From a phage: a stretch of 26,673 nucleotides of DNA. Shown here in pieces: positions 1,594 through 26,673 of the stretch. Position 1 is the first letter of the stretch, and every line of letters begins with the position of its first letter. The stretch lies in NCBI GenBank assembly GCA_014436445.1, contig GCA_014436445.1_4089.1; one strand, 5' to 3'. The notes below the pieces were generated by a model. The model did not search any database and had not been told where the DNA came from. It saw only the letters and a program-made list of their open reading frames with translations. The position numbers were made by a program, and so were the translations under genes.

Positions 1594-1809
1594 TTATTTA
1601 CAGAACTGTAGCCCGACTGTGTTCGGATAGTACACACATCTTTCACGCTTACCGCTAAACGCAGATATCCAGGATAATTTGTATGCCACTGGCTCAGGTG
1701 CAAGAGGATTATTTGAATAATCGAGAACTTTAACAATTAAACGGTCCCCAACATACCAGCCAGTTGACTCTTTGATACGGTCGATAATTTCTTGTTTGGT
1801 TAACGCCAT
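1594..1809 (-). CDS. hypothetical small protein (71 aa)
   Basis: Track ORF 1594..1842 trimmed to the ATG at 1809 (MALTKQEII...); the promoter and leader at 1843-1900 are near-identical to those upstream of 1167..1493. Confidence 0.5.
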   Translation of the reverse strand: MALTKQEIIDRIKESTGWYVGDRLIVKVLDYSNNPLAPEPVAYKLSWISAFSGKRERCVYYPNTVGLQFCK

Positions 1810-2023
1810 TTTATATCTCGCTCTTTTGGAGGTGGGCTGCACTATTGCCGCCCTACGAGATACATTATCGCAGTACTGATATACTTTGTCAATACTTTTT
1901 TTGAAATAGTTTTGAGTACTGGCATTACATCCACCAGCAGATAGTTACTCACCGTTATTAACTATCTTATAGATACTTCTCTGCACCCTGTGGGCTAGTT
2001 TTTGTCTATGCGTATATAATAGC

Positions 2024-2056
2024 AAAGGGACTGACCGGAGTCAATCCCTTTTTTTT
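2024..2056 (-). terminator. intrinsic terminator hairpin that also contains a promoter -35 (composite repeat, copy 1 of 4)
   Basis: GGGACTGACCGGAGTCAATCCC stem-loop flanked by A and T runs directly after the stop of 2068..2268. On the minus strand the hairpin contains TTGACT, followed 17 nt later by TATTAT. Copies at 4283-4312, 7424-7453 and 11120-11148. Confidence 0.55.
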
Positions 2057-2067
2057 ATTCTTTTTTG

Positions 2068-2268
2068 TTAGATGATTCTCCAATCTTCTACCAGGATTTT
2101 AATATACCGTACCAGTGATTCGAGTGATTCCACTTCCCGATAATCGGTAGCCGTTTGCACGGAACAAGTACAGCCGATCAAGCCATTGCCAAGCTCTTTG
2201 ATCTGTACATCGATGCAGTTGGCTTTTGCTTCATTCAGTACTGCAACCAATTCGTTAGCGATTGACAT
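2068..2268 (-). CDS. hypothetical small protein (66 aa)
   Basis: Track ORF; AGGAG Shine-Dalgarno; leader hairpin and promoter at 2288-2340. Confidence 0.6.
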   Translation of the reverse strand: MSIANELVAVLNEAKANCIDVQIKELGNGLIGCTCSVQTATDYREVESLESLVRYIKILVEDWRII

Positions 2269-2356
2269 AATGTTTTACTCCTAAAGGTGCGGGAGAACTA
2301 TTCCCCCGCTCTATGTAAAACATTATACATTATCTTGTAGTACTGTCAAATAGTTT

Positions 2357-2614
2357 TTATGAGATATCTTCGATATAGTCGGCCCATGTCATTTGTTCAG
2401 TACTATCGAGTGCACCAGGATTATTTGGATCAAACCATTCGCCATCCCCTAAGTACATTGCAGCGGATACCGCTTTATAGCCATTATAGGCGTTATTCCA
2501 CTGCATAGCACGATAGATACGGCCTTTGATTGGTGTCTGTACTGGTAATGTTTTATGGTCTTCTACGTAGGCCATAGCTTGAGGATTTACCCGATATTGT
2601 GTGAACTGTTCCAT
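2357..2614 (-). CDS. hypothetical protein (85 aa)
   Basis: Track ORF; AAGGGGAAA Shine-Dalgarno; promoter TTGACA at about 2650-2680. Confidence 0.6.
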   Translation of the reverse strand: MEQFTQYRVNPQAMAYVEDHKTLPVQTPIKGRIYRAMQWNNAYNGYKAVSAAMYLGDGEWFDPNNPGALDSTEQMTWADYIEDIS

Positions 2615-2689
2615 TATGTTTCCCCTTGTAGTTAGTAAAGTTATTACATCAGTACTATCAAGCTATGTCAATAGTACTGAAATAAAACT

Positions 2690-2914
2690 TTAGATTAGAT
2701 TATTGATGCCGTTGATGGTAGACTCGCTTTCTTCTTTCTCCCATTGGCGGTAATACTTCCATGCTTCATGATAGGTGGCGATCAGTTCATCTTTTTGATC
2801 CTGAGTACATGCCAGTACTGAATCACTGTAAGCGGTGTTATAGATAGAATCAAATGATTTCTTCTCTTCTGCCAGGGTAGCTACTTCCCGCATCAGTTCA
2901 TCAAAGTTAGCCAT
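2690..2914 (-). CDS. hypothetical small protein (74 aa)
   Basis: Track ORF 2690..2959 trimmed to the ATG at 2914 (MANFDELM...); the longer form would read through the leader hairpin at 2931-2953. AAGGAG Shine-Dalgarno. Confidence 0.6.
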   Translation of the reverse strand: MANFDELMREVATLAEEKKSFDSIYNTAYSDSVLACTQDQKDELIATYHEAWKYYRQWEKEESESTINGINNLI

Positions 2915-2982
2915 TTTAGTACTCCTTATTAGTGGGGGAGGATATCTCCCCCTATGCAAAACATTATACTTTGTTTTAGTTA

Positions 2983-3246
2983 TTATGCAAGTACTTTTTT
3001 CATATAAACATTGTATTCTACACCGCCGTAACCTTCGCAGATGATATGTTTTGAGTTATCACGTTTGCACATCGTAAAGGCATCGTTGACGTGTTTTGCA
3101 TTTTCCAGGGCAACATCACCGATAGCGGCACATACTGAACTAATAACGATATTCCGCAAAGTACTGGTATCATTAGCGGTCATAGTAGTTTGCAGTACTA
3201 CGTTGTCGTATACGTGTGCATTGATAGTGATTTCGATAGTGTTCAT
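2983..3246 (-). CDS. hypothetical protein (87 aa)
   Basis: Track ORF; AGGAGA Shine-Dalgarno; hairpin leader and TTGCAT/TATAAT promoter at 3266-3330. Confidence 0.6.
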   Translation of the reverse strand: MNTIEITINAHVYDNVVLQTTMTANDTSTLRNIVISSVCAAIGDVALENAKHVNDAFTMCKRDNSKHIICEGYGGVEYNVYMKKVLA

Positions 3247-3334
3247 GGTGTATCTCCTGGACTTGAGGGGAAACCATTTCCCCCCTCTCGATATAAAACA
3301 TTATACGTTAATCTAACTACAATGCAAGTACTTT

Positions 3335-3526
3335 TTAAATTTTATTTCCGATATAGTCCGGCCTATTCTTTTCGGTCATACGCTTTGCTAATGTTTGCAT
3401 ATAGCTTATCGCGTTTAAGGTGTCTTCCTCCAGGGATGAATCAACATAATCAGGATCATTCTTCACCTTGCAATGATTATGATAGCGTAGTACTGCCAGT
3501 ACTTTTTTAACTTCTTCAACTGTCAT
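3335..3526 (-). CDS. hypothetical small protein (63 aa), overlaps the upstream stop by 4 nt
   Basis: Track ORF; start and stop overlap with 3523..3795 suggests translational coupling. Confidence 0.5.
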   Translation of the reverse strand: MTVEEVKKVLAVLRYHNHCKVKNDPDYVDSSLEEDTLNAISYMQTLAKRMTEKNRPDYIGNKI

Positions 3527-3795
3527 AATAAGTATTCCACTTCGTTAGCTTTCAGGTTAGTATCGATCATCAGTGGTTTTTTGTAGTCCACAAAACGATT
3601 AGTTTTCTCGATAGCGAAGCCCATATAATCCAGTTTGCTTACAGTACATTCATTCTTAAAAACTTCTTTCGCGGCATTGATGGCTGATTCAATTGATAAC
3701 CGCCCATCTAAATTAATGTTACCAAATGATCCACCAGCAGAAGTAGGATTACCGTTCATATCTTTAATAATCATAGTAGCGGAGTAGCTGGACAT
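3523..3795 (-). CDS. hypothetical protein (90 aa), first gene of a two-gene operon
   Basis: Track ORF; leader hairpin GGGGAGAACTATTCTCCCC and TTGACA/TATAAT promoter at 3816-3880. Confidence 0.6.
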   Translation of the reverse strand: MSSYSATMIIKDMNGNPTSAGGSFGNINLDGRLSIESAINAAKEVFKNECTVSKLDYMGFAIEKTNRFVDYKKPLMIDTNLKANEVEYLL

Positions 3796-3878
3796 AATTT
3801 TGTTTCCTTTTATTGTGGGGAGAACTATTCTCCCCTTGATGTAAACTATTATACAGTACTGATATACTTTGTCAATAC

Positions 3879-4100
3879 TTAATTACGTTTAAAATGATAT
3901 GTACCGTTATCATCCTGTACGCCCCATACTGATTTACCATCAACACCAGTGAAGCCGGATTGTAATTCAATATGGAAACCATTATTATCAACTACAAAAA
4001 CTTTTTTATTTTCATCCCGATAACATTGATATTCTGAATCAACATTAAAGGCCGCATCATTCAGAAGATTGGAAGCGTAAATGCAAGTCATTGTAGTCAT
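3879..4100 (-). CDS. hypothetical small protein (73 aa)
   Basis: Track ORF 3879..4175 trimmed to the ATG at 4100, which has an AAGGAA Shine-Dalgarno; the longer form overlaps the leader hairpin at 4118-4140. Confidence 0.55.
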   Translation of the reverse strand: MTTMTCIYASNLLNDAAFNVDSEYQCYRDENKKVFVVDNNGFHIELQSGFTGVDGKSVWGVQDDNGTYHFKRN

Positions 4101-4321
4101 GATTTTATTCCTTATTGCCAGGGAGAACCGTTTCCCCCTCTCGATATAAAACATTATACTTGATTCTAAGTACAATGCAAGTACTTTTTATCAAATAGTT
4201 TTCAGTACTGAATACTTATATAATATATACATTTATGCACCCTGTGGGTCAGTGAGCTATCTCTCAATGAATATATAATAGCAAAGGGACTGACCGGAGT
4301 CAATCCCTTTTTTAATCTTTT

Positions 4322-4906
4322 TTATCGTGTTATAGTTACGGCTTTTACATCACGCTTTTTATAGTACTGATTCCAGATATTGCGGGTTAAACCGTAATCA
4401 AGTACTTTAATAAGGCCGTTGCGATCCTGGCCGATATTCTGTTTTCTGATATCTCTTATCGTCAGTGTTGATAAGGTATCATCAACGTGTTGTAGTGCAT
4501 CAGCAAAGCGGTGCTGGCGTTCAATGGCATTACGTTTAATATTGTACTTTAATTCGTTGCACGCGTTAACGTGCTTTACACTGCCTTTACTTGCAGTACT
4601 CAACCGATCCATAACAATAAACATATTATCAGGATCGCTTAAATGCATATGCACTTTAGCGAAGAACTGTTTCAACTGAGGGCGGTCATAGTCTAAAAAA
4701 TTCCATACCCTACATTCTGTTTCATTTTGTTCTACACCCGCATCACAATTCGCGACCTTGATCACTAACCGATCATTTAAAGCGAATACAATACGGGAAG
4801 AACCCGCACCGATGATCTCCAGACCAGCTAACCGACAAGCTGAAAGGATCTCTTTGTTGGTTTCCATTTCTGACAGTGTACGGATGAATTTAGTATAATT
4901 ACGCAT
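4322..4906 (-). CDS. minimal protein-kinase-like protein (194 aa)
   Basis: Track ORF trimmed to the ATG at 4906 (AAGGAG Shine-Dalgarno). Motifs in order: glycine-rich loop IIGAGSSRIVF, beta3 lysine LVIKV, catalytic-loop-like IRDIRKQNIG (compare HRDLKPENI), DYG about 20 residues later (compare DFG). The protein ends soon after DYG. Confidence 0.55.
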   Translation of the reverse strand: MRNYTKFIRTLSEMETNKEILSACRLAGLEIIGAGSSRIVFALNDRLVIKVANCDAGVEQNETECRVWNFLDYDRPQLKQFFAKVHMHLSDPDNMFIVMDRLSTASKGSVKHVNACNELKYNIKRNAIERQHRFADALQHVDDTLSTLTIRDIRKQNIGQDRNGLIKVLDYGLTRNIWNQYYKKRDVKAVTITR

Positions 4907-4937
4907 TGTTTTATCTCCTTGAGTTAATGAAACTATA

Positions 4938-5180
4938 TTACAGTACTTTACTATCAATGGCAACTACTTTTTTAACACTTACAGCGTGAATCACTTCCTT
5001 AGTGTTTTTAGTACTGAATACTTTCGCTGTTCCTTGTTCTACTGCAATGCGATAACGACCGTTAACATCAACCATATTAATAAAGTCCGGTGTACTAAAC
5101 CGAGTAGTACGGCATTTCAGTACTGTTAACAGTTCCACCAGCGATGTAGTTTCTTTGATACGTTTTTCTAAAGTAATCAT
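4938..5180 (-). CDS. hypothetical protein (80 aa)
   Basis: Track ORF; second promoter class (TTGACAGTACTCAAATGTTTTAGTACTATG...) at 5195-5240, repeated at 5470-5520. Confidence 0.55.
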   Translation of the reverse strand: MITLEKRIKETTSLVELLTVLKCRTTRFSTPDFINMVDVNGRYRIAVEQGTAKVFSTKNTKEVIHAVSVKKVVAIDSKVL

Positions 5181-5238
5181 TTTGTTTTCCCCCGTGTTGG
5201 TATAGATACATAGTACTAAAACATTTGAGTACTGTCAA

Positions 5239-5457
5239 TTAGATAATATTATATTTCTTAAAATAAAATGCGTCCTGTGTTGGTTGATACTCGATACCGT
5301 TCCCGTTATTGACTTCAACTAATAAACCTTTGTCAATTAGTTTTTTAATAGTACGATACCCCTGTTGAAAATTGGTAAAATGTGAATCATTACGAAAGGT
5401 ATAACCGTGCTTAACTGCTTCATCAATAGTTTTCTTTTCGATTTTAGATAATTTCAT
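5239..5457 (-). CDS. hypothetical small protein (72 aa), possibly a winged-helix DNA-binding protein
   Basis: Track ORF trimmed to the ATG at 5457 (MKLSKIEKKTIDEAVKHGYTF...); the TIKKLIDKGLLVEV segment resembles a winged-helix recognition helix and wing. Weak. Confidence 0.45.
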   Translation of the reverse strand: MKLSKIEKKTIDEAVKHGYTFRNDSHFTNFQQGYRTIKKLIDKGLLVEVNNGNGIEYQPTQDAFYFKKYNII

Positions 5458-5513
5458 TTTGTTTCTCTCTCTGTGTTGGTATAGATACATAATACTAAAA
5501 CAATTGAGTACTG

Positions 5514-5768
5514 TCAACGTGATATTAGTTTTATTTTTTTATTGTATTGTTGGTGTTCATATAGATTAATTTTTCCAGTACTCTCGATCACTATTCTATT
5601 GTTAGTGTCTACGTCGATTACACGTAGTTTCCCGTTGCTTAACTTCCTAGGCAATAGACTACCATTAATAAACTCATTAGCAAGCTGTACGGCCTTTGTG
5701 ATGATTCTCTGTGGGGCTTTATAGTGTACCCGTAATACATTATCGTTTGATAGTTGAACCTTAATCAT
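5514..5768 (-). CDS. hypothetical protein (84 aa)
   Basis: Track ORF; preceded by the hairpin at 5783-5807. Confidence 0.5.
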   Translation of the reverse strand: MIKVQLSNDNVLRVHYKAPQRIITKAVQLANEFINGSLLPRKLSNGKLRVIDVDTNNRIVIESTGKINLYEHQQYNKKIKLISR

Positions 5769-5782
5769 TTTGTTTATCCTAT

Positions 5783-5807
5783 AAAAAAGGCGGGAACAGT
5801 TCCCGCC
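5783..5807 (-). terminator. intrinsic terminator or attenuator hairpin
   Basis: GGCGGGAACAGTTCCCGCC followed on the minus strand by TTTTTTAT, between the stop of 5831..6226 and the start of 5514..5768. Confidence 0.5.
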
Positions 5808-5830
5808 GTGTTGTTAGTACTGCAAAGTTA

Positions 5831-6226
5831 TTAGATAACCTGGCGGCGTTTACTGTATACTGTTACACGGTTTCCTTTACGGTCATGACGGATCTCTTTC
5901 TGGTTACGAATCAGTTCACTTGGACGCTTAAGGTTTGCCAGGTGATCCGCGTGAGTCCATGCATTTGCGTTAACTGTAACTTCAATATCAGAACCTTTCA
6001 AAAAGTCATCTTGAGCGTTCAGTACTTCAGCCAGTTCTTGAGCTTGCTTTAGTTCTGCTGCTGTAAGTACAGGCTCAGGTGAATTCACAATATCAGAGAT
6101 CTCTTTGAACTGTACCGCCCAGCGTTGTCCTTTCGGTGCATCTTTGCCCATGTCTTTAAATGTTTCACCTTCTTCACGGGCAACGATGCGAGCTTGTTCA
6201 CGGGTAGCGAAGAATTTAGTAATCAT
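5831..6226 (-). CDS. hypothetical protein (131 aa), paralog of 17753..18019
   Basis: Track ORF trimmed to the ATG at 6226 (AGGATG Shine-Dalgarno). Shares FATRExARI.AR..G.TFKDMG...G.RWAV and HDRKGNRVTVYS with 17753..18019, and the two promoter regions are near-identical. Confidence 0.6.
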   Translation of the reverse strand: MITKFFATREQARIVAREEGETFKDMGKDAPKGQRWAVQFKEISDIVNSPEPVLTAAELKQAQELAEVLNAQDDFLKGSDIEVTVNANAWTHADHLANLKRPSELIRNQKEIRHDRKGNRVTVYSKRRQVI

Positions 6227-6325
6227 GGTGTACATCCTATTAGTTAAGTTAATTAGTACTACAAGTTAGAGTCTATTATAAAGTACTATCTGGGCAATGT
6301 CAAATAGTACTTTAAATGGATTCTA

Positions 6326-6649
6326 TTACATGTCTTTCTTACGTTTTACATCGTAGTAACGAACTGTAATTTCTTTGTTGATCTCTTCCTCGATGCGGTG
6401 AATAACTTTTTCTTTCGGGTTGAAACCTATAACGGTTTCTTTAATGATCTCCAAGCCCGTGTATTCGCCTTGTGTACCGTAACCGTAAGTAAAGGTTTCA
6501 TGTCCCAGGTCTTCCCAGCGGTCACCAATCAATGCAGACACGTAGCATGAGTGGTAAGTATTGCCGTGGCTATCAGTCCACCGATTAACTTTAATGTCAA
6601 AGGAAGTTACAATTTTCATTTCTACTTTCTGGGTAAGGATCATAGTCAT
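6326..6649 (-). CDS. hypothetical protein (107 aa), paralog of 12703..13047
   Basis: Track ORF; shared motifs RW...GNTY.S, Y.YGYG and a C-terminal DVKRKKD(M/L); leader hairpin at 6671-6695. Confidence 0.6.
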   Translation of the reverse strand: MTMILTQKVEMKIVTSFDIKVNRWTDSHGNTYHSCYVSALIGDRWEDLGHETFTYGYGTQGEYTGLEIIKETVIGFNPKEKVIHRIEEEINKEITVRYYDVKRKKDM

Positions 6650-6736
6650 TTTAATTTCTCTCTTTTTGTTAGGAGGGGAACCATTCCCCTCACTTGATGT
6701 AAACTATTATACAGTACTAAGATACTTTGTCAATAC

Positions 6737-6871
6737 TTATTTGTTTTCTTTTCGTAATTTCTTTTCAGCTTCAACTACATTACGATTTGTGCAAACCACT
6801 TCATCGGATAAATCTAACTTCCAGCCAGCCAGGGGATTGGTTGCTTTTTTAGTGTTGTTTGCTGCTTTCAT
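6737..6871 (-). CDS. hypothetical small protein (44 aa; MKAANNTKKATNPLAGWKLDLSDEVVCTNRNVVEAEKKLRKENK)
   Basis: Not in the track (under 60 aa). Own promoter TTGACAATAGTTTTTAGTACTGTATAAT at 6890-6935 and an AAGGAAACATC Shine-Dalgarno before the ATG. Confidence 0.4.
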   Translation of the reverse strand: MKAANNTKKATNPLAGWKLDLSDEVVCTNRNVVEAEKKLRKENK

Positions 6872-6938
6872 GATGTTTCCTTATTAATTAAGATGTAAAC
6901 TATTATACAGTACTAAAAACTATTGTCAAACTATTTTA

Positions 6939-7139
6939 TCAAATTGTTTCCCATTTCATGTTACCCGCTTTACGCTGTGCAACAGGAATAAACATGTTAT
7001 TAATGTTACTAATATAACCGACCTGTAAGTCACGCTGTGAACCATACGCCCGACTTGCTGCATTTTTAGCACCGCGTTCTGATTTATAAACGCCGCTGGA
7101 TACTGTAAAGCCTACTACACCGAAAGTAAAATGTTTCAT
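6939..7139 (-). CDS. hypothetical small protein (66 aa)
   Basis: Track ORF; AAAGAGGAA Shine-Dalgarno; promoter TTGACA, 16 nt, TATAAT at 7160-7195. Confidence 0.55.
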   Translation of the reverse strand: MKHFTFGVVGFTVSSGVYKSERGAKNAASRAYGSQRDLQVGYISNINNMFIPVAQRKAGNMKWETI

Positions 7140-7205
7140 TTTGTATTCCTCTTTGTGGTTTATGTAAGTATTATACTCGTTTAATTTCTATTGTCAAACT
7201 ATTTT

Positions 7206-7281
7206 ATCAGGGGAGGTTTTCGTATGTCTTACTCCTGGACTACTTAACGGGGAGTTACTTGTTTCGTTCCCCGTCCTGATG
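7206..7281 (-). ncRNA. candidate structured RNA or leader element, copy 1 (copy 2 at 17522-17597)
   Basis: A ~76-nt element bounded by the inverted termini ATCAGG...CCTGAT, with an internal CGGGGA...TCCCCG stem, transcribed from the TTGCAT/TATAAT promoter at about 7283-7320. It differs from the 17522-17597 copy at only 4 positions. Confidence 0.35.
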
Positions 7282-7462
7282 TAAAACATTATACTTGATT
7301 CTAAGTACAATGCAAGTACTTTTTAAAAATAGTTTTCAGTACTTGATAGTACTAGCCACCAGCATATAATAGATACATTTATGCACCCTGTGGGCTGATT
7401 TGTTTCTATGCGTATATAATAGCAAAGGGACTGACCGGAGTCAATCCCTTTTTTAAATCTTT

Positions 7463-7612
7463 TTAAACTTGTTTTGGGTTGCGATATGTGATAGCGTTCG
7501 GGTACATTTGTTTAATGTTATTCCATGCCTGGTTAACATTGTAACCACTTGATCGAATCAGTTGGTTACTACCGACACCTTGAAACACTACTTCAAATAA
7601 GAATTCTTTCAT
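7463..7612 (-). CDS. hypothetical small protein (49 aa)
   Basis: Not in the track. GAGGTG Shine-Dalgarno; followed by the terminator repeat at 7424-7453. Confidence 0.4.
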   Translation of the reverse strand: MKEFLFEVVFQGVGSNQLIRSSGYNVNQAWNNIKQMYPNAITYRNPKQV

Positions 7613-7782
7613 GCTTTCACCTCGCTATCTGCTTTGCCTTTACGCCAGGCCGTTGCTAATTGTTCGCGTTGCCATAAGTCGAGTGATACGTAAAGTTTTG
7701 CATTATCACCCTTCGGATATTCGCCAGTAGTGCCTAACCGATAAAACAGATCTTTCAGTACTGATAATTCTACTTGGATCAT
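7609..7782 (-). CDS. hypothetical small protein (57 aa)
   Basis: Not in the track. AGGAG Shine-Dalgarno; ATGA overlap with the downstream ORF. Confidence 0.4.
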   Translation of the reverse strand: MIQVELSVLKDLFYRLGTTGEYPKGDNAKLYVSLDLWQREQLATAWRKGKADSEVKA

Positions 7783-7871
7783 TGTATTACTCCTGATTGT
7801 GTTAGTACTTCTACGATGGCATGAATGATCATAAGTACAGCTAACACAACAATCATCGGATTCATTTGCAT
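7779..7871 (-). CDS. 30-aa hydrophobic peptide (MQMNPMIVVLAVLMIIHAIVEVLTQSGVIQ), predicted single-pass membrane peptide
   Basis: Not in the track. AAGGAG Shine-Dalgarno 8 nt before the ATG; about 20 consecutive hydrophobic residues; its stop overlaps the next start (ATGA). Confidence 0.4.
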   Translation of the reverse strand: MQMNPMIVVLAVLMIIHAIVEVLTQSGVIQ

Positions 7872-7888
7872 AAGCTGTACTCCTTCTA

Positions 7889-8101
7889 TTAATCTTTCAG
7901 CCAATGATCTTGAATGAATTTTTCACAGAATCCCTGTTTCATAGATTCTAACAGGCGTTCACGGTGAGCGGCGGCATATTGCTCAGTACTATGCGTTACG
8001 CCAGGTTGATAACGTGAAACACCGTCTGGTCCGATATATTGAACATCCCACGGTTTTTCGTTAGTATCAGACCATTTACGAACGATTAGTTGACCTTGCA
8101 T
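7889..8101 (-). CDS. hypothetical small protein (70 aa), first gene of a four-gene micro-operon
   Basis: Track ORF; AAGAGGAAAG Shine-Dalgarno; leader hairpin GGGGAGAATCATTTCTCCCC and promoter at 8110-8180. Confidence 0.6.
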   Translation of the reverse strand: MQGQLIVRKWSDTNEKPWDVQYIGPDGVSRYQPGVTHSTEQYAAAHRERLLESMKQGFCEKFIQDHWLKD

Positions 8102-22775: not shown

Positions 22776-22955
22776 TTATATAGATGCCAGGGCGAGGATT
22801 TCCCTGTAGGGATTATCTTGTGTTAGTACAGCATAAATGCAGTTATTGAGATTAATATTTTTAGTACTTTTTGTTCCTAGTTTGTAGTACTTCACGAAGG
22901 TGTCGTACATGAAACGGTCTTTTATGGTTATACGTTCTCTATAGAATTGTTGCAT
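22776..22955 (-). CDS. small-protein paralog array, member 7 (59 aa; MQQFYRERITIKDRFMYDTFVKYYKLGTKSTKNINLNNCIYAVLTQDNPYREILALASI)
   Basis: Not in the track (59 aa). AAGGAA Shine-Dalgarno; central NNCIYAVL and C-terminal ILALASI fit the family. Confidence 0.5.
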   Translation of the reverse strand: MQQFYRERITIKDRFMYDTFVKYYKLGTKSTKNINLNNCIYAVLTQDNPYREILALASI

Positions 22956-22963
22956 AGTATTCC

Positions 22964-23146
22964 TTAAATAGCGATTAGTTTCATTACTTCTCTGTATGTG
23001 TACTTTTCGTTTTGTGCATCTCTTGTGACGACATATAGGAAGGTGTGTTTATCTTTTTTGTTCCCGCAATTGTAGAAAATATTGAACTTATTGAAGTTGA
23101 ATCTTTCGGCGTGTTGTAGTTTAGTTAAATAGAATTCTATATTCAT
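22964..23146 (-). CDS. small-protein paralog array, member 6 (60 aa)
   Basis: Track ORF; MNIEFYLTKL...YNCGN...MKLIAI. Confidence 0.55.
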   Translation of the reverse strand: MNIEFYLTKLQHAERFNFNKFNIFYNCGNKKDKHTFLYVVTRDAQNEKYTYREVMKLIAI

Positions 23147-23154
23147 TTTCTTCC

Positions 23155-23340
23155 TTACATTTCAATAAGTTTAAGTACTGCTCGGTACGTGTACTTAGTT
23201 GTTAGTGCTTCTTTAATAGAAATACAGAAGTAATGTTGTTTGTCTCTTATACTGCCGCGTTTGTAGTACCACACATGGGAGTTGTGACTGTACTTGTCTC
23301 TGTCGGATAGTTGTTGGTAGTAGTAGCTTATATGATTCAT
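23155..23340 (-). CDS. small-protein paralog array, member 5 (61 aa)
   Basis: Track ORF; MNHISYYYQQL...FCISIKEAL...LKLIEM. Confidence 0.55.
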   Translation of the reverse strand: MNHISYYYQQLSDRDKYSHNSHVWYYKRGSIRDKQHYFCISIKEALTTKYTYRAVLKLIEM

Positions 23341-23392
23341 TATAATGTAATTAGCCTTACTATATTAAAGTACTCGGTCCCTGGTGTACCTT

Positions 23393-23587
23393 TTAGAACT
23401 TAAAGATGAGGTTCAGGATAGAGCGGTACTTAGTTGCAGGGAACGTATGTTCTATTGCATAACGTGTCACCATCCTGAAATCGTAATTATAATACAGATT
23501 ATCCTTTCTCATAGGTGGTGCTAAAGAGAATGATAGCTGTTCTTGTTTGGGTAGTTTACTACAATAGAAATCTTTATGATTATTCAT
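23393..23587 (-). CDS. small-protein paralog array, member 4 (64 aa)
   Basis: Track ORF; MNNHKDFYCSKLPKQEQ...ILNLIFKF. Confidence 0.55.
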   Translation of the reverse strand: MNNHKDFYCSKLPKQEQLSFSLAPPMRKDNLYYNYDFRMVTRYAIEHTFPATKYRSILNLIFKF

Positions 23588-23789
23588 AGAAATATATTAG
23601 TCCTATTAAACCAGAGTACATAATATTTTTGTTATTACATTCGATTGCTTCTAGAGTACTACGTATACAATTATTAAAGCAATCTCTGGCGTGTGGTGTA
23701 TCTATACTTAAAGGTGATACACTCCTTAGAAACAATTGTTCTTCGTTGCTAAGGTATTTGGTGTAGAATTCTTTATGTTCAGTATTCAT
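23580..23789 (-). CDS. small-protein paralog array, member 3 (69 aa)
   Basis: Track ORF; MNTEHKEFYTKYLSNEEQ...NNCIRSTL...LIGLIYFYE; 8-nt overlap with member 4. Confidence 0.6.
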   Translation of the reverse strand: MNTEHKEFYTKYLSNEEQLFLRSVSPLSIDTPHARDCFNNCIRSTLEAIECNNKNIMYSGLIGLIYFYE

Positions 23790-23790
23790 A

Positions 23791-23994
23791 TTAGTACTCG
23801 ATTAAAAGGGCAAGGATATAATAGTATTGCATACTTTCTGCCCCTTGTAAAGCATTTCTTATGATATTATTCCTGTACGAGTTCAGGAGTTTAGGACAAC
23901 GTTTGTAGTGTATAATAGTATTTTGTGTATACAGTAGGCTTTCTCGTAGACCTTTTGTTGGTAGTGCATCGATGTAGTACTGTTCGATATTCAT
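23791..23994 (-). CDS. small-protein paralog array, member 2 (67 aa)
   Basis: Track ORF; MNIEQYYIDALP...YYILALLIEY. Confidence 0.6.
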   Translation of the reverse strand: MNIEQYYIDALPTKGLRESLLYTQNTIIHYKRCPKLLNSYRNNIIRNALQGAESMQYYYILALLIEY

Positions 23995-24218
23995 ATAGAT
24001 AGCAGTACTAAGATTTTTGATAATTGTTTATTGCTATCCCCGCAGATGTTGCTGTGTAAAATACTCACAATGAGGGTATCAATTGCATTGTTCATCATAA
24101 GGGTGCATCCTGGACTATTATAATTTTTTAGCTCAATTAGCCACGAACTATCCGAGAGAAACTCCCCGTACTCTAGTTCATTTAGAGTATTGAGGTAGTA
24201 CTTAAGAGTATTTGTCAT
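23991..24218 (-). CDS. small-protein paralog array, member 1 (75 aa), first gene after the array promoter
   Basis: Track ORF; AAGGAG Shine-Dalgarno; MTNTLKYYLNTL...PGCTLMMNNAI...ILVLLSI. Confidence 0.55.
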   Translation of the reverse strand: MTNTLKYYLNTLNELEYGEFLSDSSWLIELKNYNSPGCTLMMNNAIDTLIVSILHSNICGDSNKQLSKILVLLSI

Positions 24219-24243
24219 GTGTAGTTCTCCTTATATTCCTTCT

Positions 24244-24272
24244 ATAGTACAACAGTACTGAAAGGATGTCAA
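24244..24272 (-). promoter_or_regulatory. promoter for the paralog array (TTGACA, 17 nt, TACTAT)
   Basis: Minus-strand TTGACA at 24272-24267 and TACTAT at 24249-24244 in the divergent intergenic region; no further consensus promoter was seen inside the array. Confidence 0.45.
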
Positions 24273-24274
24273 GG

Positions 24275-24304
24275 GTTTTCTTTATTGGGTAAATATGATA
24301 TAAT
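24275..24304 (+). promoter_or_regulatory. candidate TG-extended -10 promoter (TGATATAAT) for the first RCC1-like gene
   Basis: TGATATAAT at 24296-24304 about 16 nt before the GGAGGG Shine-Dalgarno; the -35 is poor. Confidence 0.35.
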
Positions 24305-24320
24305 GAATAAGGAGGGAATT

Positions 24321-25469
24321 ATGTTACCTTTTGCAAGAATGGTTAAGTACGGGAATATTGCCCCTGGTGATGATGGACGTTTTAAAATATATTCCAGTGA
24401 TTCCATGTATCTTCATGATACTTATACTGATAAGTTGTATGCATCTTCTGCGACGAATTGGGGTACTGGAACAGGTGTAGCATCGAGTAAATTTATTCTT
24501 TGTGCGGAGAATGTTAAACGAGTTCTATTGGAAGATAACAGTAGTGATTGTCAATTGTATGAAGAGAAAGGTACTGGAAAAGTTTTTATCACTGGTAACA
24601 CGAAGGCATTCACTGGTGTAACTGATAGAAAAACTTTGTGGACGGACTGTACTACGTGGATAACATCAAGTGGTATTAATGTTTCTGATATAAAATACAT
24701 GAGTAGTTTTTATGATATGAAGGTGAATTTGATAACAAACGATGGTACATTGTATTGTTGTGGAGCTAACAATATATCGAACATATCATCATTTGGTGAT
24801 GGCACAAACATTAATTCTTTTAACACATTCAAAAGAGTAGATACTATAACTTCGGTTAAAAAGGCAGTTGGTAACATTTATTTGCGAGAAGATAATACTT
24901 TATGGGGTTGTGGTTTTAACTATTACTACCAGTTGGGCACGGGTAATCAAACTTCTATTACTGGGGTGACGATGATTTCTTCGGATGTTATAGATTTTAA
25001 TGTAAGTTATCAGAGTACATTTTTTATCAAATCGGATAATAATTTGTACGCTTGTGGTAAACAGTTCGGTGCACAATATGGGAACGAATTTGGTACAGGT
25101 GGTACTTCTACATCTACAGATATACAATATCAAACTCCGACATTATTGAGTTCAGGAGTTTATACTCTATATACTTGTGTTGGTAACATGGCATCACATA
25201 TTGTCAAAGCAGATGAAGTTCTATATGCTTCTGGAACGAATGGGTTTGGGCAATTAGGTGTTGGTAATAATAATAATCAGTACTCCTATACTCCTTCTTA
25301 TACTTCTTTTAATAGTTCGTGTGATTTGGTACGCAGTCCATCTGGATCACTTATACTTACGGATACTGGAAAATTATATTATTGTGGCATTGCAATAGTA
25401 GTAATGGGTGGTATTTCTGGACAGAACGTTCTTAATTATACAGAAGTAGATATGTCATTTATACAATGA
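24321..25469 (+). CDS. RCC1-like repeat (beta-propeller) protein, paralog 1 (382 aa)
   Basis: Track ORF 24285..25469 trimmed to the ATG at 24321 (GGAGGG Shine-Dalgarno; identical start context to paralog 2). Repeats fit the RCC1 blade signature: TLYCCGANN...FGDG, TLWGCGFNYYYQLGTG, NLYACGKQFGAQYGNEFGTG, VLYASGTNGFGQLGVG, KLYYCG. Confidence 0.7.
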   Translation: MLPFARMVKYGNIAPGDDGRFKIYSSDSMYLHDTYTDKLYASSATNWGTGTGVASSKFILCAENVKRVLLEDNSSDCQLYEEKGTGKVFITGNTKAFTGVTDRKTLWTDCTTWITSSGINVSDIKYMSSFYDMKVNLITNDGTLYCCGANNISNISSFGDGTNINSFNTFKRVDTITSVKKAVGNIYLREDNTLWGCGFNYYYQLGTGNQTSITGVTMISSDVIDFNVSYQSTFFIKSDNNLYACGKQFGAQYGNEFGTGGTSTSTDIQYQTPTLLSSGVYTLYTCVGNMASHIVKADEVLYASGTNGFGQLGVGNNNNQYSYTPSYTSFNSSCDLVRSPSGSLILTDTGKLYYCGIAIVVMGGISGQNVLNYTEVDMSFIQ

Positions 25470-25477
25470 ATTAATAT

Positions 25478-25506
25478 GCCAGTACTTGATACTGGCTTTT
25501 CTTTTT
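25478..25506 (+). terminator. intrinsic terminator
   Basis: GCCAGTACTTGATACTGGC stem followed by TTTTCTTTTT directly after the stop at 25469. Confidence 0.6.
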
Positions 25507-25541
25507 GTATTAAATATAGTATAATGAATAAAGGAGGAATT

Positions 25542-26673
25542 ATGTTACCTTTTGCAAGAATGGTTAAGTACGGGAATATTGCACCTGCACAAATCGGTAG
25601 ATATAAAATATACAGTTCATCTTCTTCACTATTTTTATTGGATACCCAAAAACACAATTTGTACAGTACATCGAACATTAATTATACTAGTGGTACAGGT
25701 AATGTTGAGCCTAAATTTGTGTTAAGTGCAACTAATGTTAAAAGATTATTACTATCTGATAATAGTTGTGCAATGCAAATATATGAAGATATGAATGGGC
25801 GTGCAGCGATGTGTGGCACAAGAACTGCATATAGTGGGGTTGCAAATGATAATGTACTGGTATGGACGGATTGCACTACATGGTTCACAAATGTAGGGTT
25901 GAATGTATCAGATATTCAGTACATGTCTGGTTTTTATAATCTGAAACTAAACATAGTTATGAATAATGGTGATTTGTGGTGTAGTGGGAAAAACAACACT
26001 ACTACTATGTCATCATTTGGTAATAGCACAAATATCGATTCATTCAATCAGTTTACCAAAATAACAACAATATCAAATGTTATTAAAGCCACCGGGAATA
26101 TATACTTATGTGCAGATAATACTTTATGGGGATGTGGTTTTAACTCTTACTATCAGTTAGGGACAGGTAATCAAACATCCAGTATTAATTTGATTATGAT
26201 GGCTTCTAATGTTATCGACTGTAATGTTGGTCTTCAAAATACTTATTACTTGACTAATAATAAAGAACTTTATGGATGTGGTACACAATTTGGTACAACT
26301 TACGGGAATGAATTTGGAACAGGAAGGCAGGGAACAGCAATACAATATAAGACTCCTACTATAATTTTCACAAATGCAGATGGTATGGCTGTTTGTGTCG
26401 GTAATATGTCTACTCATGTTATTCAATATGATAAAGTTTTTAGTTCTGGTAATAATGCCCTTGCACAGTTGGGTGTAGGCAACCGTGACAATGTGTACAC
26501 ATATACACAATCATTTGATAATTTCAAAATGGATTCTTCTATAGTACGTGCAAACGTTGGAACATTGATAATGACAGCGGACAATAAGTTATATTACAGT
26601 GGGAGAAATGATGTTGTTATGGGTGGAACAAGCACACAATACACGACGGTTTTCAGTGAAGTTAATATGTCAT
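25542..26673 (+). CDS. RCC1-like repeat protein, paralog 2 (5' portion, runs off window end)
   Basis: ATG at 25542 after an AAGGAGG Shine-Dalgarno; first 14 residues MLPFARMVKYGNIA identical to paralog 1; repeats TLWGCGFNSYYQLGTGNQTS and ELYGCGTQFGTTYGNEFGTG; open to the window end. Not in the track because incomplete. Confidence 0.65.
   Translation, partial: MLPFARMVKYGNIAPAQIGRYKIYSSSSSLFLLDTQKHNLYSTSNINYTSGTGNVEPKFVLSATNVKRLLLSDNSCAMQIYEDMNGRAAMCGTRTAYSGVANDNVLVWTDCTTWFTNVGLNVSDIQYMSGFYNLKLNIVMNNGDLWCSGKNNTTTMSSFGNSTNIDSFNQFTKITTISNVIKATGNIYLCADNTLWGCGFNSYYQLGTGNQTSSINLIMMASNVIDCNVGLQNTYYLTNNKELYGCGTQFGTTYGNEFGTGRQGTAIQYKTPTIIFTNADGMAVCVGNMSTHVIQYDKVFSSGNNALAQLGVGNRDNVYTYTQSFDNFKMDSSIVRANVGTLIMTADNKLYYSGRNDVVMGGTSTQYTTVFSEVNMS

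Follow-up and report, generated by a model that had tools for sequence, protein, structure and literature searches.

A hypervariable array of leader-bearing RCC1-like propeller genes in Rak2-like jumbo phages, with a possible role in diversifying the virion

The right-hand end of a 26,673-nucleotide phage contig (GenBank assembly GCA_014436445.1, contig GCA_014436445.1_4089.1; the whole stretch is called the window below) contains two adjacent plus-strand genes for RCC1-like proteins, here named gene A and gene B (Table 1). A preliminary description of the sequence had reported them as a tandem pair. Both genes were confirmed, but to call them a pair is incorrect: gene B, cut off by the end of the window, is cassette 2 of an array that comprises 15 in Escherichia phage vB_EcoM_phAPEC6 (MK817115, Asteriusvirus, 352.6 kb; hereafter phAPEC6) and 6-17 in its relatives. 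Region 24200-26673 is 99.5% identical to phAPEC6 over its whole length, and 36 further jumbo phages of E. coli and Salmonella match it only over the first 52-56%. The members of the array begin with a common 12-residue leader, which also heads proteins of other folds in related jumbo phages and which we regard as a candidate tag for incorporation into the virion.

Table 1. Genes and expression signals at the right-hand end of the window
Feature	Position	Strand	Remarks
Gene A	24321-25469	+	382 residues plus stop; leader, linker and predicted seven-bladed RCC1-like propeller; orthologous to phAPEC6 gp549 and 121Q gp248
Gene B	25542->26673	+	377 codons, then end of window; same leader and predicted seven-bladed RCC1-like propeller; orthologous to phAPEC6 gp550 (380 residues)
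Promoter-like motif TAAATATGATATAATGAATAA, cassette 1	24290..24310	+	Array-leading variant, no hairpin upstream
Shine-Dalgarno sequence of gene A, AGGAGGG	24310..24316	+	Direct sequence reading; conserved in the gene A/B alignment
Leader codons 1-12 of gene A, MLPFARMVKYGN	24321..24356	+	Followed to about codon 20 by a variable, often Pro-rich linker
Predicted intrinsic terminator of gene A, hairpin GCCAGTACTTGATACTGGC and T-run	25478..25506	+	Folding energy -10 kcal/mol
Promoter-like motif TAAATATAGTATAATGAATAA, cassette 2	25511..25531	+	Internal-joint variant
Shine-Dalgarno sequence of gene B, GGAGG	25533..25537	+	Direct sequence reading; conserved in the gene A/B alignment

The gene A and gene B proteins are 53-54% identical from end to end, with six gap positions, and are the closest pair among the phAPEC6 paralogs, which are otherwise 24-34% identical to one another. 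Codons 1-13 of the two genes are identical in nucleotides, codon 14 is synonymous (GCC/GCA) and codon 15 is again identical; the 15 residues common to the two products are MLPFARMVKYGNIAP, and GGAGG precedes both genes. The earlier claim of a common Shine-Dalgarno sequence and 5' block is upheld by these comparisons, as is that of an intrinsic terminator behind gene A (stem GCCAGTA/TACTGGC at 25478-25496, then TTTTCTTTTT). In the phAPEC6 record both orthologues are annotated as "regulator of chromosome condensation". Judged by the ratio of nonsynonymous to synonymous substitution rates (dN/dS mostly 0.13-0.27 in pairs among seven orthologues), gene A is under purifying selection. At the megablast level the gene B cassette type was found only in phAPEC6 among 50,697 phage records, and a sequence 91% identical to gene B (P0007) is present in metagenome assemblies.

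The RCC1-type propeller had been proposed from repeated blade motifs, and we examined it by profile search and structure prediction. Gene A scores 36.4 bits against the Pfam family RCC1_2 (cut-off 22) and 34.6 bits against RCC1 (cut-off 21.7), and gene B scores 26.8 and 26.3 bits against the same two families, both over the gathering thresholds. The whole-domain model WD40_RLD gives 71 bits for gene A and 62 bits for gene B, which is significant yet under its cut-off of 150, and both proteins match PHROG 4219 (1e-111 and 1e-73, respectively). A profile made from the family alignment matches solved RCC1-like domains (RPGR, HERC1/2, UVR8 and RCC1) at E = 5e-72; BLIP-II is a marginal match in the same search (E = 6e-4). 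The AlphaFold2 models of A and B (predicted local distance difference test, pLDDT, 89.8 and 92.0; predicted template modelling score 0.87 and 0.88) each have 28 strands, arranged as seven four-stranded blades between residues ~21 and 375, to which the motif repeats correspond. In both models residues 1-17 have pLDDT below 50. The top 45 Foldseek matches in the PDB are all RCC1-like domains, with template modelling scores to 0.74 and UVR8, RPGR, HERC2 and RCC1 as the best. Each of the two gene products is predicted, with high confidence, to form an RCC1-like propeller of seven blades behind a disordered N-terminal stretch of 17 residues.

In this they are like the known RCC1-like domain (RLD) proteins (PF00415/PF13540; RCC1, UVR8, RPGR, the HERC2 RLDs and BLIP-II), with which they have in common seven four-stranded blades of ~50 residues each, the signature (L/V)(Y/W)xxGxNxxGQLGxG, and significant matches in sequence and fold. 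Unlike those proteins, the phage cassettes have no Ran, chromatin or UV-B context and encode single-domain proteins of 380 residues that have an extra disordered leader, are virion-associated and are massively paralogous. An apparent literature link between RCC1 and a hypervariable region of Ostreococcus viruses proved false, "RCC" there denoting strain numbers of the Roscoff Culture Collection.

Scanned across the origin of the record, phAPEC6 has 15 consecutive plus-strand open reading frames (ORFs) that start MLPF(A/G)RM..YGN, 13 of them distinct. Four of these cassettes are unannotated or mis-started in the record (3-1145, 2434-3543, 6063-7253 and 7325-8059). The segment gp550-gp551 is repeated with 100% protein identity at the two record ends (350178-352535 and 3-2360), and this may be either a true 2.4-kb tandem duplication or an artefact of assembly or terminal redundancy. 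When the 72 cassettes of the window and six phages were clustered at 70% identity or more, they fell into 34 types, with 6-17 cassettes in each array. The gene A type is present in all six phages (in G17 as the fifth cassette), and the gene B type occurs among these sequences in phAPEC6 and the window only. Cassette order across the six phages is partly syntenic; the differences are insertions, deletions and replacements, all of them whole-cassette events.

Some cassettes depart from the RCC1-like type. In the Turkey3 array, cassettes 8 and 9 (on the reverse strand of the locus) are Kelch propellers with the same leader within an otherwise RCC1-type array, and are annotated "NS1A-binding protein" in the record. 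A Gly-rich cassette of 244 residues with GGxGG runs (phAPEC6 7325-8059, 121Q gp243) has the same leader and joint in all six arrays. It had no Pfam match and no sequence match in the PDB, and belongs to phrog_4474, for which no function is assigned.

Comparison across related phages, which the preliminary description had recommended, identified the 5' block of genes A and B as a family-wide leader with a regulatory joint before it. The leader consensus is MLPFxRMxxYGN. M1 and L2 never vary among 70 unique Asteriusvirus cassettes, and P3, F4, R6, M7, Y10, G11 and N12 are each kept in at least 66. With an entropy of 0.78 bits, compared with 1.95-2.7 bits for each class of propeller strand or loop, the leader is by this sequence measure the most conserved segment of the family. 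Within Asteriusvirus there is synonymous variation at Y10 (TAC 44, TAT 24) and G11 (GGG 48, GGA 19). In Pectobacterium phage CBB and Serratia phage BF the codons for P3 (CCG/CCA/CCT/CCC), F4 (TTT/TTC) and G11 vary with the residues fixed, and CBB retains the leader although the joint is absent there. The differing codons, and a leader present without the joint, indicate that the leader is conserved at the protein level, independently of the Asteriusvirus joint.

A tblastn search with the leader matched 61 phage records, and among the matches listed all are jumbo genomes of 310-386 kb. Their hosts are Escherichia, Salmonella, Erwinia, Cronobacter, Serratia, Yersinia, Klebsiella, Xanthomonas and Pectobacterium. 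The same search placed the leader at exactly 15 sites in phAPEC6, all within the array. In CBB the leader heads Kelch propellers (CBB_550, 552 and 554) and Laminin_G_3 (LamG) or concanavalin-like domains (CBB_548 and 551). It also heads a 220-residue family without fold assignment, found in CBB (CBB_549 and CBB_553) and in BF (BF_372), and BF encodes RCC1-like leader-bearing members as well. A profile of the leader, compared with 1.84 billion representative proteins, found 80 clusters at E <= 0.001 that are at most 50% identical to each other, and the match lies at residue 1 in nearly all of them. A Pfam scan of 70 of these clusters gave 61 RCC1-like, 2-3 Kelch and 2 Laminin_G_3 assignments. 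Use of the leader is independent of fold.

The arrangement in CBB differs from that in Asteriusvirus. Its seven leader genes (CBB_554-548, at 1637-6905 of the CBB stretch examined; 3 Kelch, 2 LamG and 2 unassigned) adjoin the terminal repeat, lie 8-9 nucleotides (nt) apart or overlap, and have no terminator-promoter joints; the BF genes are likewise 8-9 nt apart and lack the joint. The CBB cluster may be a simpler form of the locus.

Most phAPEC6 cassettes are set apart by a nearly invariant joint of ~70 nt, in which a hairpin (GCCAGTAC-loop-GTACTGGC) is followed by a T-run, GTATTAAATATAGTATAATGAATAA and GGAGG. We examined 72 cassette starts in seven sequences (the window and six phages). A hairpin lies upstream of 50, with a T-run in 45 of those cases, and the promoter-like motif precedes 60, typically 16-17 nt 5' of the ATG. 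About 12 cassettes, closely trailing the previous one, have neither hairpin nor motif. The hairpin stems are constant and the loops variable, which is the pattern expected of a selected structure. Within the window TAAATAT(GA/AG)TATAATGAATAA is found 5' of both genes and nowhere else (2 matches, with 0.04 expected by chance).

The joint motif is similar to the late motif (A/C)TAAATA predicted for CBB and GAP32. At gene A it reads GTAAATATGATATA, which is identical at 13 of 14 positions to CTAAATATGATATA in the predicted CBB late promoter Porf_201. The CBB motif, (A/C)TAAATA followed by AT-rich sequence, was predicted by MEME 5' of structural genes including CBB_551-553, and the same authors found a gp55-like sigma factor in CBB (PMC5259590). 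Our scan for sigma-70 promoters gave no -35 match and nothing convincing at the joints; the weak matches (9-10/12) were all inside coding sequence. From the match to the predicted CBB promoter and the presence of the CBB sigma factor, we infer that the cassettes are transcribed late and autonomously.

Two variants of the motif are distinguished by position. The first cassette has TAAATATGATATAAT with no hairpin upstream in the window and in four of the five arrays for which the beginning is available; PBECO4, whose array was captured without its beginning, is outside the count. Internal joints have TAAATATAGTATAAT. The first cassette of G17 is of another type yet carries the "GA" variant, so the variant follows position and not cassette type.

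Megablast blocks between phAPEC6 and 121Q mostly begin 65-100 nt 5' of a cassette ATG and end at +35 to +45. Most block ends fall within -101 to +45 of an ATG, the exceptions being the array flanks and one end 25 nt 5' of an ATG. Within the array, homology is thus lost and regained mainly inside the repeat formed by joint and leader. Type A bodies that are more than 92% identical occur with four different leader variants across phages (A..VK, G..VK, A..MN and V..FD).

The leader variants, defined by positions 5, 8 and 9, group by genome and neighbourhood and not by cassette type. V..FD is found in 9 of the 17 Turkey3 cassettes, and A..MN in adjacent cassettes of PBECO4 and G17. This grouping suggests local gene conversion or block inheritance.

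Published virion proteomics, which the preliminary description had named as a further check, proved positive for the gene A orthologue. Electrospray tandem mass spectrometry of phAPEC6 virions detected gp549 (4 peptides, 13.2% coverage), together with gp551, gp003, gp005, gp006, gp007, gp009 and gp010 (PMC7247149). CBB_548, 549, 551, 552 and 553 were detected in CBB virions with coverage up to 50.7%, and GAP32 gp001 is structural as cited by the CBB paper (PMC5259590). The JP4 virion dataset contains three leader-bearing paralogs (PMC12648861 supplement). On the phAPEC6 particle each of the 270 capsid hexamers bears a fibre, the sheath has rings of hairs and the collar is decorated; these structures are candidate docking sites. 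An inner body of 91 x 18 nm is present in phAPEC6 and 121Q, and the authors proposed these proteins for it.

Several observations bear on where in the particle the proteins might lie and what they might do. Two proteins with the annotation T7-like tail fibre (A0A2K9VI36 and A0A2K9VHT9 in BFVD, from the Pseudomonas phages PollyC and Littlefix) contain RCC1-like propellers, and the domains found in bacterial homologues of gene A include T9SS sorting, SLH, dockerin and MucBP domains. Ligand binding is typical of LamG and Kelch domains. Dependence on the flagellum has been reported for one relative (PMC11218385), and another, SHEFM2K, is flagellum-dependent as cited in PMC11895373. The tail-fibre propellers, the extracellular bacterial homologues, the LamG and Kelch binding folds and the flagellum-dependent relatives favour an external, adhesin-like role, and by these analogies the variable domains are probably host-surface adhesins on the outside of the virion. 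The PollyC and Littlefix proteins are 867 and 1365 residues long and come from unrelated podophages. Giant eukaryotic viruses have many RCC1-like proteins, some of them with F-boxes.

The explanation that we favour, with moderate confidence, is that this Asteriusvirus (Rak2-like) jumbo coliphage carries a hypervariable array of leader-tagged virion proteins with swappable ligand-binding domains, and that the leader is the tag for incorporation. Each cassette protein would consist of the invariant 12-residue leader, disordered on its own, a short variable linker and a compact ligand-binding domain. Most cassettes would be transcription units of their own, delimited by the hairpin terminator of the previous cassette and provided with a T4-late-like TAAATA...TATAAT motif and a strong ribosome-binding site, so that the proteins would be made late, alongside other virion proteins. 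The leader would act as a short docking peptide that recruits all paralogs, whatever their fold, to one common virion site or assembly factor. The variable domains would bind different ligands, most probably host-surface structures, and the virion would bear a mixed panel of adhesins. The joint-plus-leader repeats of ~140 nt would serve as patches of homology for recombination between co-infecting relatives, by which whole cassettes could be added, deleted or replaced, a process like that described for PeSL elements in T4-type phages.

A bolder form of this proposal, which we put forward tentatively, is that M-L/I-P-F-x-R-x-x-x-Y-G-N is a universal 12-residue virion-addressing peptide of the Rak2-like phages that loads a dozen or more interchangeable modules onto one docking site and makes the virions mosaic. 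If so, RCC1, Kelch, LamG and Gly-rich modules would sit on the capsid hexamer fibres or sheath hairs, virions would be combinatorially mosaic, and exchange of cassettes at the late promoter-terminator joints would rewire their set of adhesins. Hypervariable host structures, flagellin or O-antigen for instance, may be the ligands.

Several points weigh against the array being a set of exchangeable, externally displayed virion proteins. The gene B orthologue gp550 was not detected in the phAPEC6 virion (PMC7247149), and peptide counts are low, at 1-5 per paralog. The densities seen by electron cryomicroscopy in phAPEC6 (hexamer fibres, sheath hairs and inner body) have no gene assignment. A role for RCC1 propellers as the shaft of the tail hairs was considered and rejected, as CBB is hairy and has no RCC1 homologue (PMC5259590); they could be hair tips or decorations. 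The assignment of the joint motif as a late promoter rests on a MEME prediction from another genus and not on transcripts. Breakpoints can be placed no more finely than the repeat, and alignments cross any common joint by construction. Finally, codons 2-4 and 6 of the leader are nearly without synonymous variation within Asteriusvirus, which indicates that gene conversion or a constraint on translation initiation adds to the nucleotide identity.

The most serious alternative, though in our judgement a doubtful one, is that the propellers are packaged internal proteins. The leader would then be a capsid-targeting sequence like that of the T4 proteins IPI-III and Alt, and the propellers would be loaded into the prohead and ejected with the DNA. 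They might form the inner body, or bind and inhibit host defence or other host proteins, with the array diversifying in an arms race. The logic of the T4 capsid-targeting sequence, which is general knowledge, fits a short identical N-terminal leader on unrelated cargo in a hyperplastic locus with virion association. An inner body of unexplained composition exists for which these very proteins were proposed, BLIP-II is an RCC1-like propeller able to act as a tight protein inhibitor (albeit only a weak match here), and low abundance per paralog is compatible with internal proteins. The defining feature of the T4 sequence is nevertheless lacking, since the leader is not followed by a conserved Glu or any other protease site, and the linker behind it varies and in many cases is rich in proline. 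A prohead-protease site (L/I)-x-E at the end of the leader is not conserved, position 9 being K, N, D, E, Q, S or R, and conservation runs on into YGN. Such a site looked plausible in CBB and BF (L/I-x-E-Y), and was rejected for Asteriusvirus, where the position is K, N or D. Both the folds of the cargo (lectin-like LamG, Kelch and RCC1) and the extracellular bacterial homologues point outward, the family isoelectric points are unlike those of DNA-associated internal proteins, and we would expect a rigid 40-kDa propeller to need unfolding in order to cross the tail tube.

It is unlikely that the proteins are intracellular effectors and not true virion components, with a 5' block that serves expression and is homogenised by gene conversion, and with detection by mass spectrometry due to carry-over. 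The near-invariant codons of the Asteriusvirus leader are consistent with such a role, the grouping of leader variants by genome and neighbourhood is what local conversion predicts, and the few peptides and the undetected gp550 would fit as well. The same leader residues are, however, kept across genera with different codons, and in CBB in a locus that has no joint. The virion detections come from four phages (three proteomic datasets, and GAP32 as cited in the CBB paper) and reach 50.7% coverage, and the leader profile matches at residue 1 in 80 clusters of low mutual identity.

We consider it very improbable that the annotation is correct and that these proteins regulate the condensation of DNA or chromosomes and organise the genome in its packaged or replicating state. 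The role of RCC1 itself needs Ran and nucleosomes, which are absent from bacteria. All that speaks for condensation is the Pfam family name and a speculation in PMC7247149. The calculated isoelectric point of the gene A product is 4.99 and those of the family range from 5.0 to 9.0 with a median of 6.7, and such acidic to neutral values argue against DNA binding by the propellers. Kelch and lectin-like domains are found behind the same leader in the same locus, and strain-level turnover of cassettes would be unexpected for a core DNA-packaging factor. The published name "chromosome condensation protein" is probably wrong. As for the two outcomes that would have overturned the preliminary description, the profile and structure searches did not lead to an unrelated fold, and it is exceedingly improbable that a frameshift or sequencing error has divided a single gene into A and B, since each ORF encodes a complete seven-bladed propeller with its own leader, a stop codon, terminator, promoter motif and ribosome-binding site lie in between, and phAPEC6 is organised alike.

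Several known phage systems resemble the array in part. The PeSL elements of T4-type phages (PMC2839356, PMC4122927) are small repeats, each a terminator plus a promoter, on either side of variable ORFs in a hyperplastic region, with indels and replacements between close relatives bounded by the repeats. The joints described here have the same composite of stem-loop and promoter-like repeat (hairpin in 50 of 72, motif in 60 of 72), and most breakpoints lie at the elements. No early sigma-70-type promoter was found at the joints, where the motif resembles the predicted late motif; the phAPEC6-type joint thus has a late (gp55-type)-like promoter motif, in contrast to the early sigma-70 promoter of PeSL. 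Its stem is GCCAGTAC/GTACTGGC and not G/C tracts, the repeat reaches 36-45 nt into coding sequence as the leader peptide, and the ORFs belong to one protein superfamily whereas those flanked by PeSL are ORFans. The T4 internal proteins, which are mentioned in PMC2839356, offer a second parallel.

Like the T4 internal proteins IPI, IPII, IPIII and Alt, the leader proteins have a near-identical short N-terminal leader on unrelated virion proteins encoded at a hypervariable locus. Unlike them they have no conserved cleavage motif and carry binding domains as cargo, and for them a location inside the capsid is hypothetical. A third parallel is with phages that have multiple receptor-binding proteins (CBA120 TSP1-4, G7C and the Klebsiella phage K64-1 depolymerases), in which several binding proteins have conserved N-terminal anchors and variable C-terminal specificity. 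From what is generally known of them, those anchors are folded, span ~100 or more residues and belong to trimeric fibres or spikes, whereas the leader is a linear peptide of 12 residues on monomer-sized globular domains.

The cassettes are the same genes as the "DNA condensation / RCC1-like" genes of Rak2-like phages (121Q gp234-248, PBECO4, phAPEC6 gp549-gp010 and GAP32 gp001). Earlier publications already describe these genes as RCC1-like, multi-copy and represented in virions (PMC5259590, PMC7247149), the multiplicity in 121Q and PBECO4 having been noted in 2017 (PMC5259590). The published reading, which invokes the inner body and DNA condensation, derives from the family name. The literature that we searched on these phages does not mention the common leader, the architecture of the joint, cassette typing or the fold-independent use of the leader. 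Relative to that literature, what appears to be new is a fold-independent leader across Rak2-like phages, a terminator-late-promoter-leader joint as the shuffling unit, and the scale of diversity, with 34 types in six phages and 80 clusters in public data.

Upstream of gene A and divergent from it, as the preliminary description had said, is a minus-strand run of seven consecutive, weakly similar genes at 22776-24218 that encode proteins of 59-75 residues. These small proteins have in common an N-terminal (F/Y)Y motif and a C-terminal Y(R)xILxLI motif, and the run is longer in 121Q (~17 genes, gp249-265). The run at 22776-24218 has neither the MLPF leader nor the joint, and nothing was found that ties it to the propeller array. 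The preliminary description had taken the propeller pair together with the small-protein array as a variable interaction module. For the propellers this fits all of the findings, with the function inferred; a functional connection to the small-protein array did not emerge. Elsewhere in the window (1-24218) nearly all the remaining coding capacity consists of short minus-strand ORFs. Only 20 ORFs in the window encode 100 residues or more, and tRNA genes are absent from it. On the plus strand, the propeller array forms an island flanked by minus-strand blocks.

Dozens of jumbo-phage genomes annotate these genes as chromosome or DNA condensation proteins, a label that rests only on the family name and that feeds discussions of inner bodies and DNA protection. 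Strain-level cassette turnover, a fold-independent leader and PeSL-like joints together provide a testable model for the diversification of the particle in 350-kb phages, one that bears on the make-up or tips of capsid fibres and tail hairs and on the determinants of host range. Should the leader prove to suffice for incorporation, it would also offer a practical tag for display, a handle by which foreign proteins could be shown on jumbo phages.

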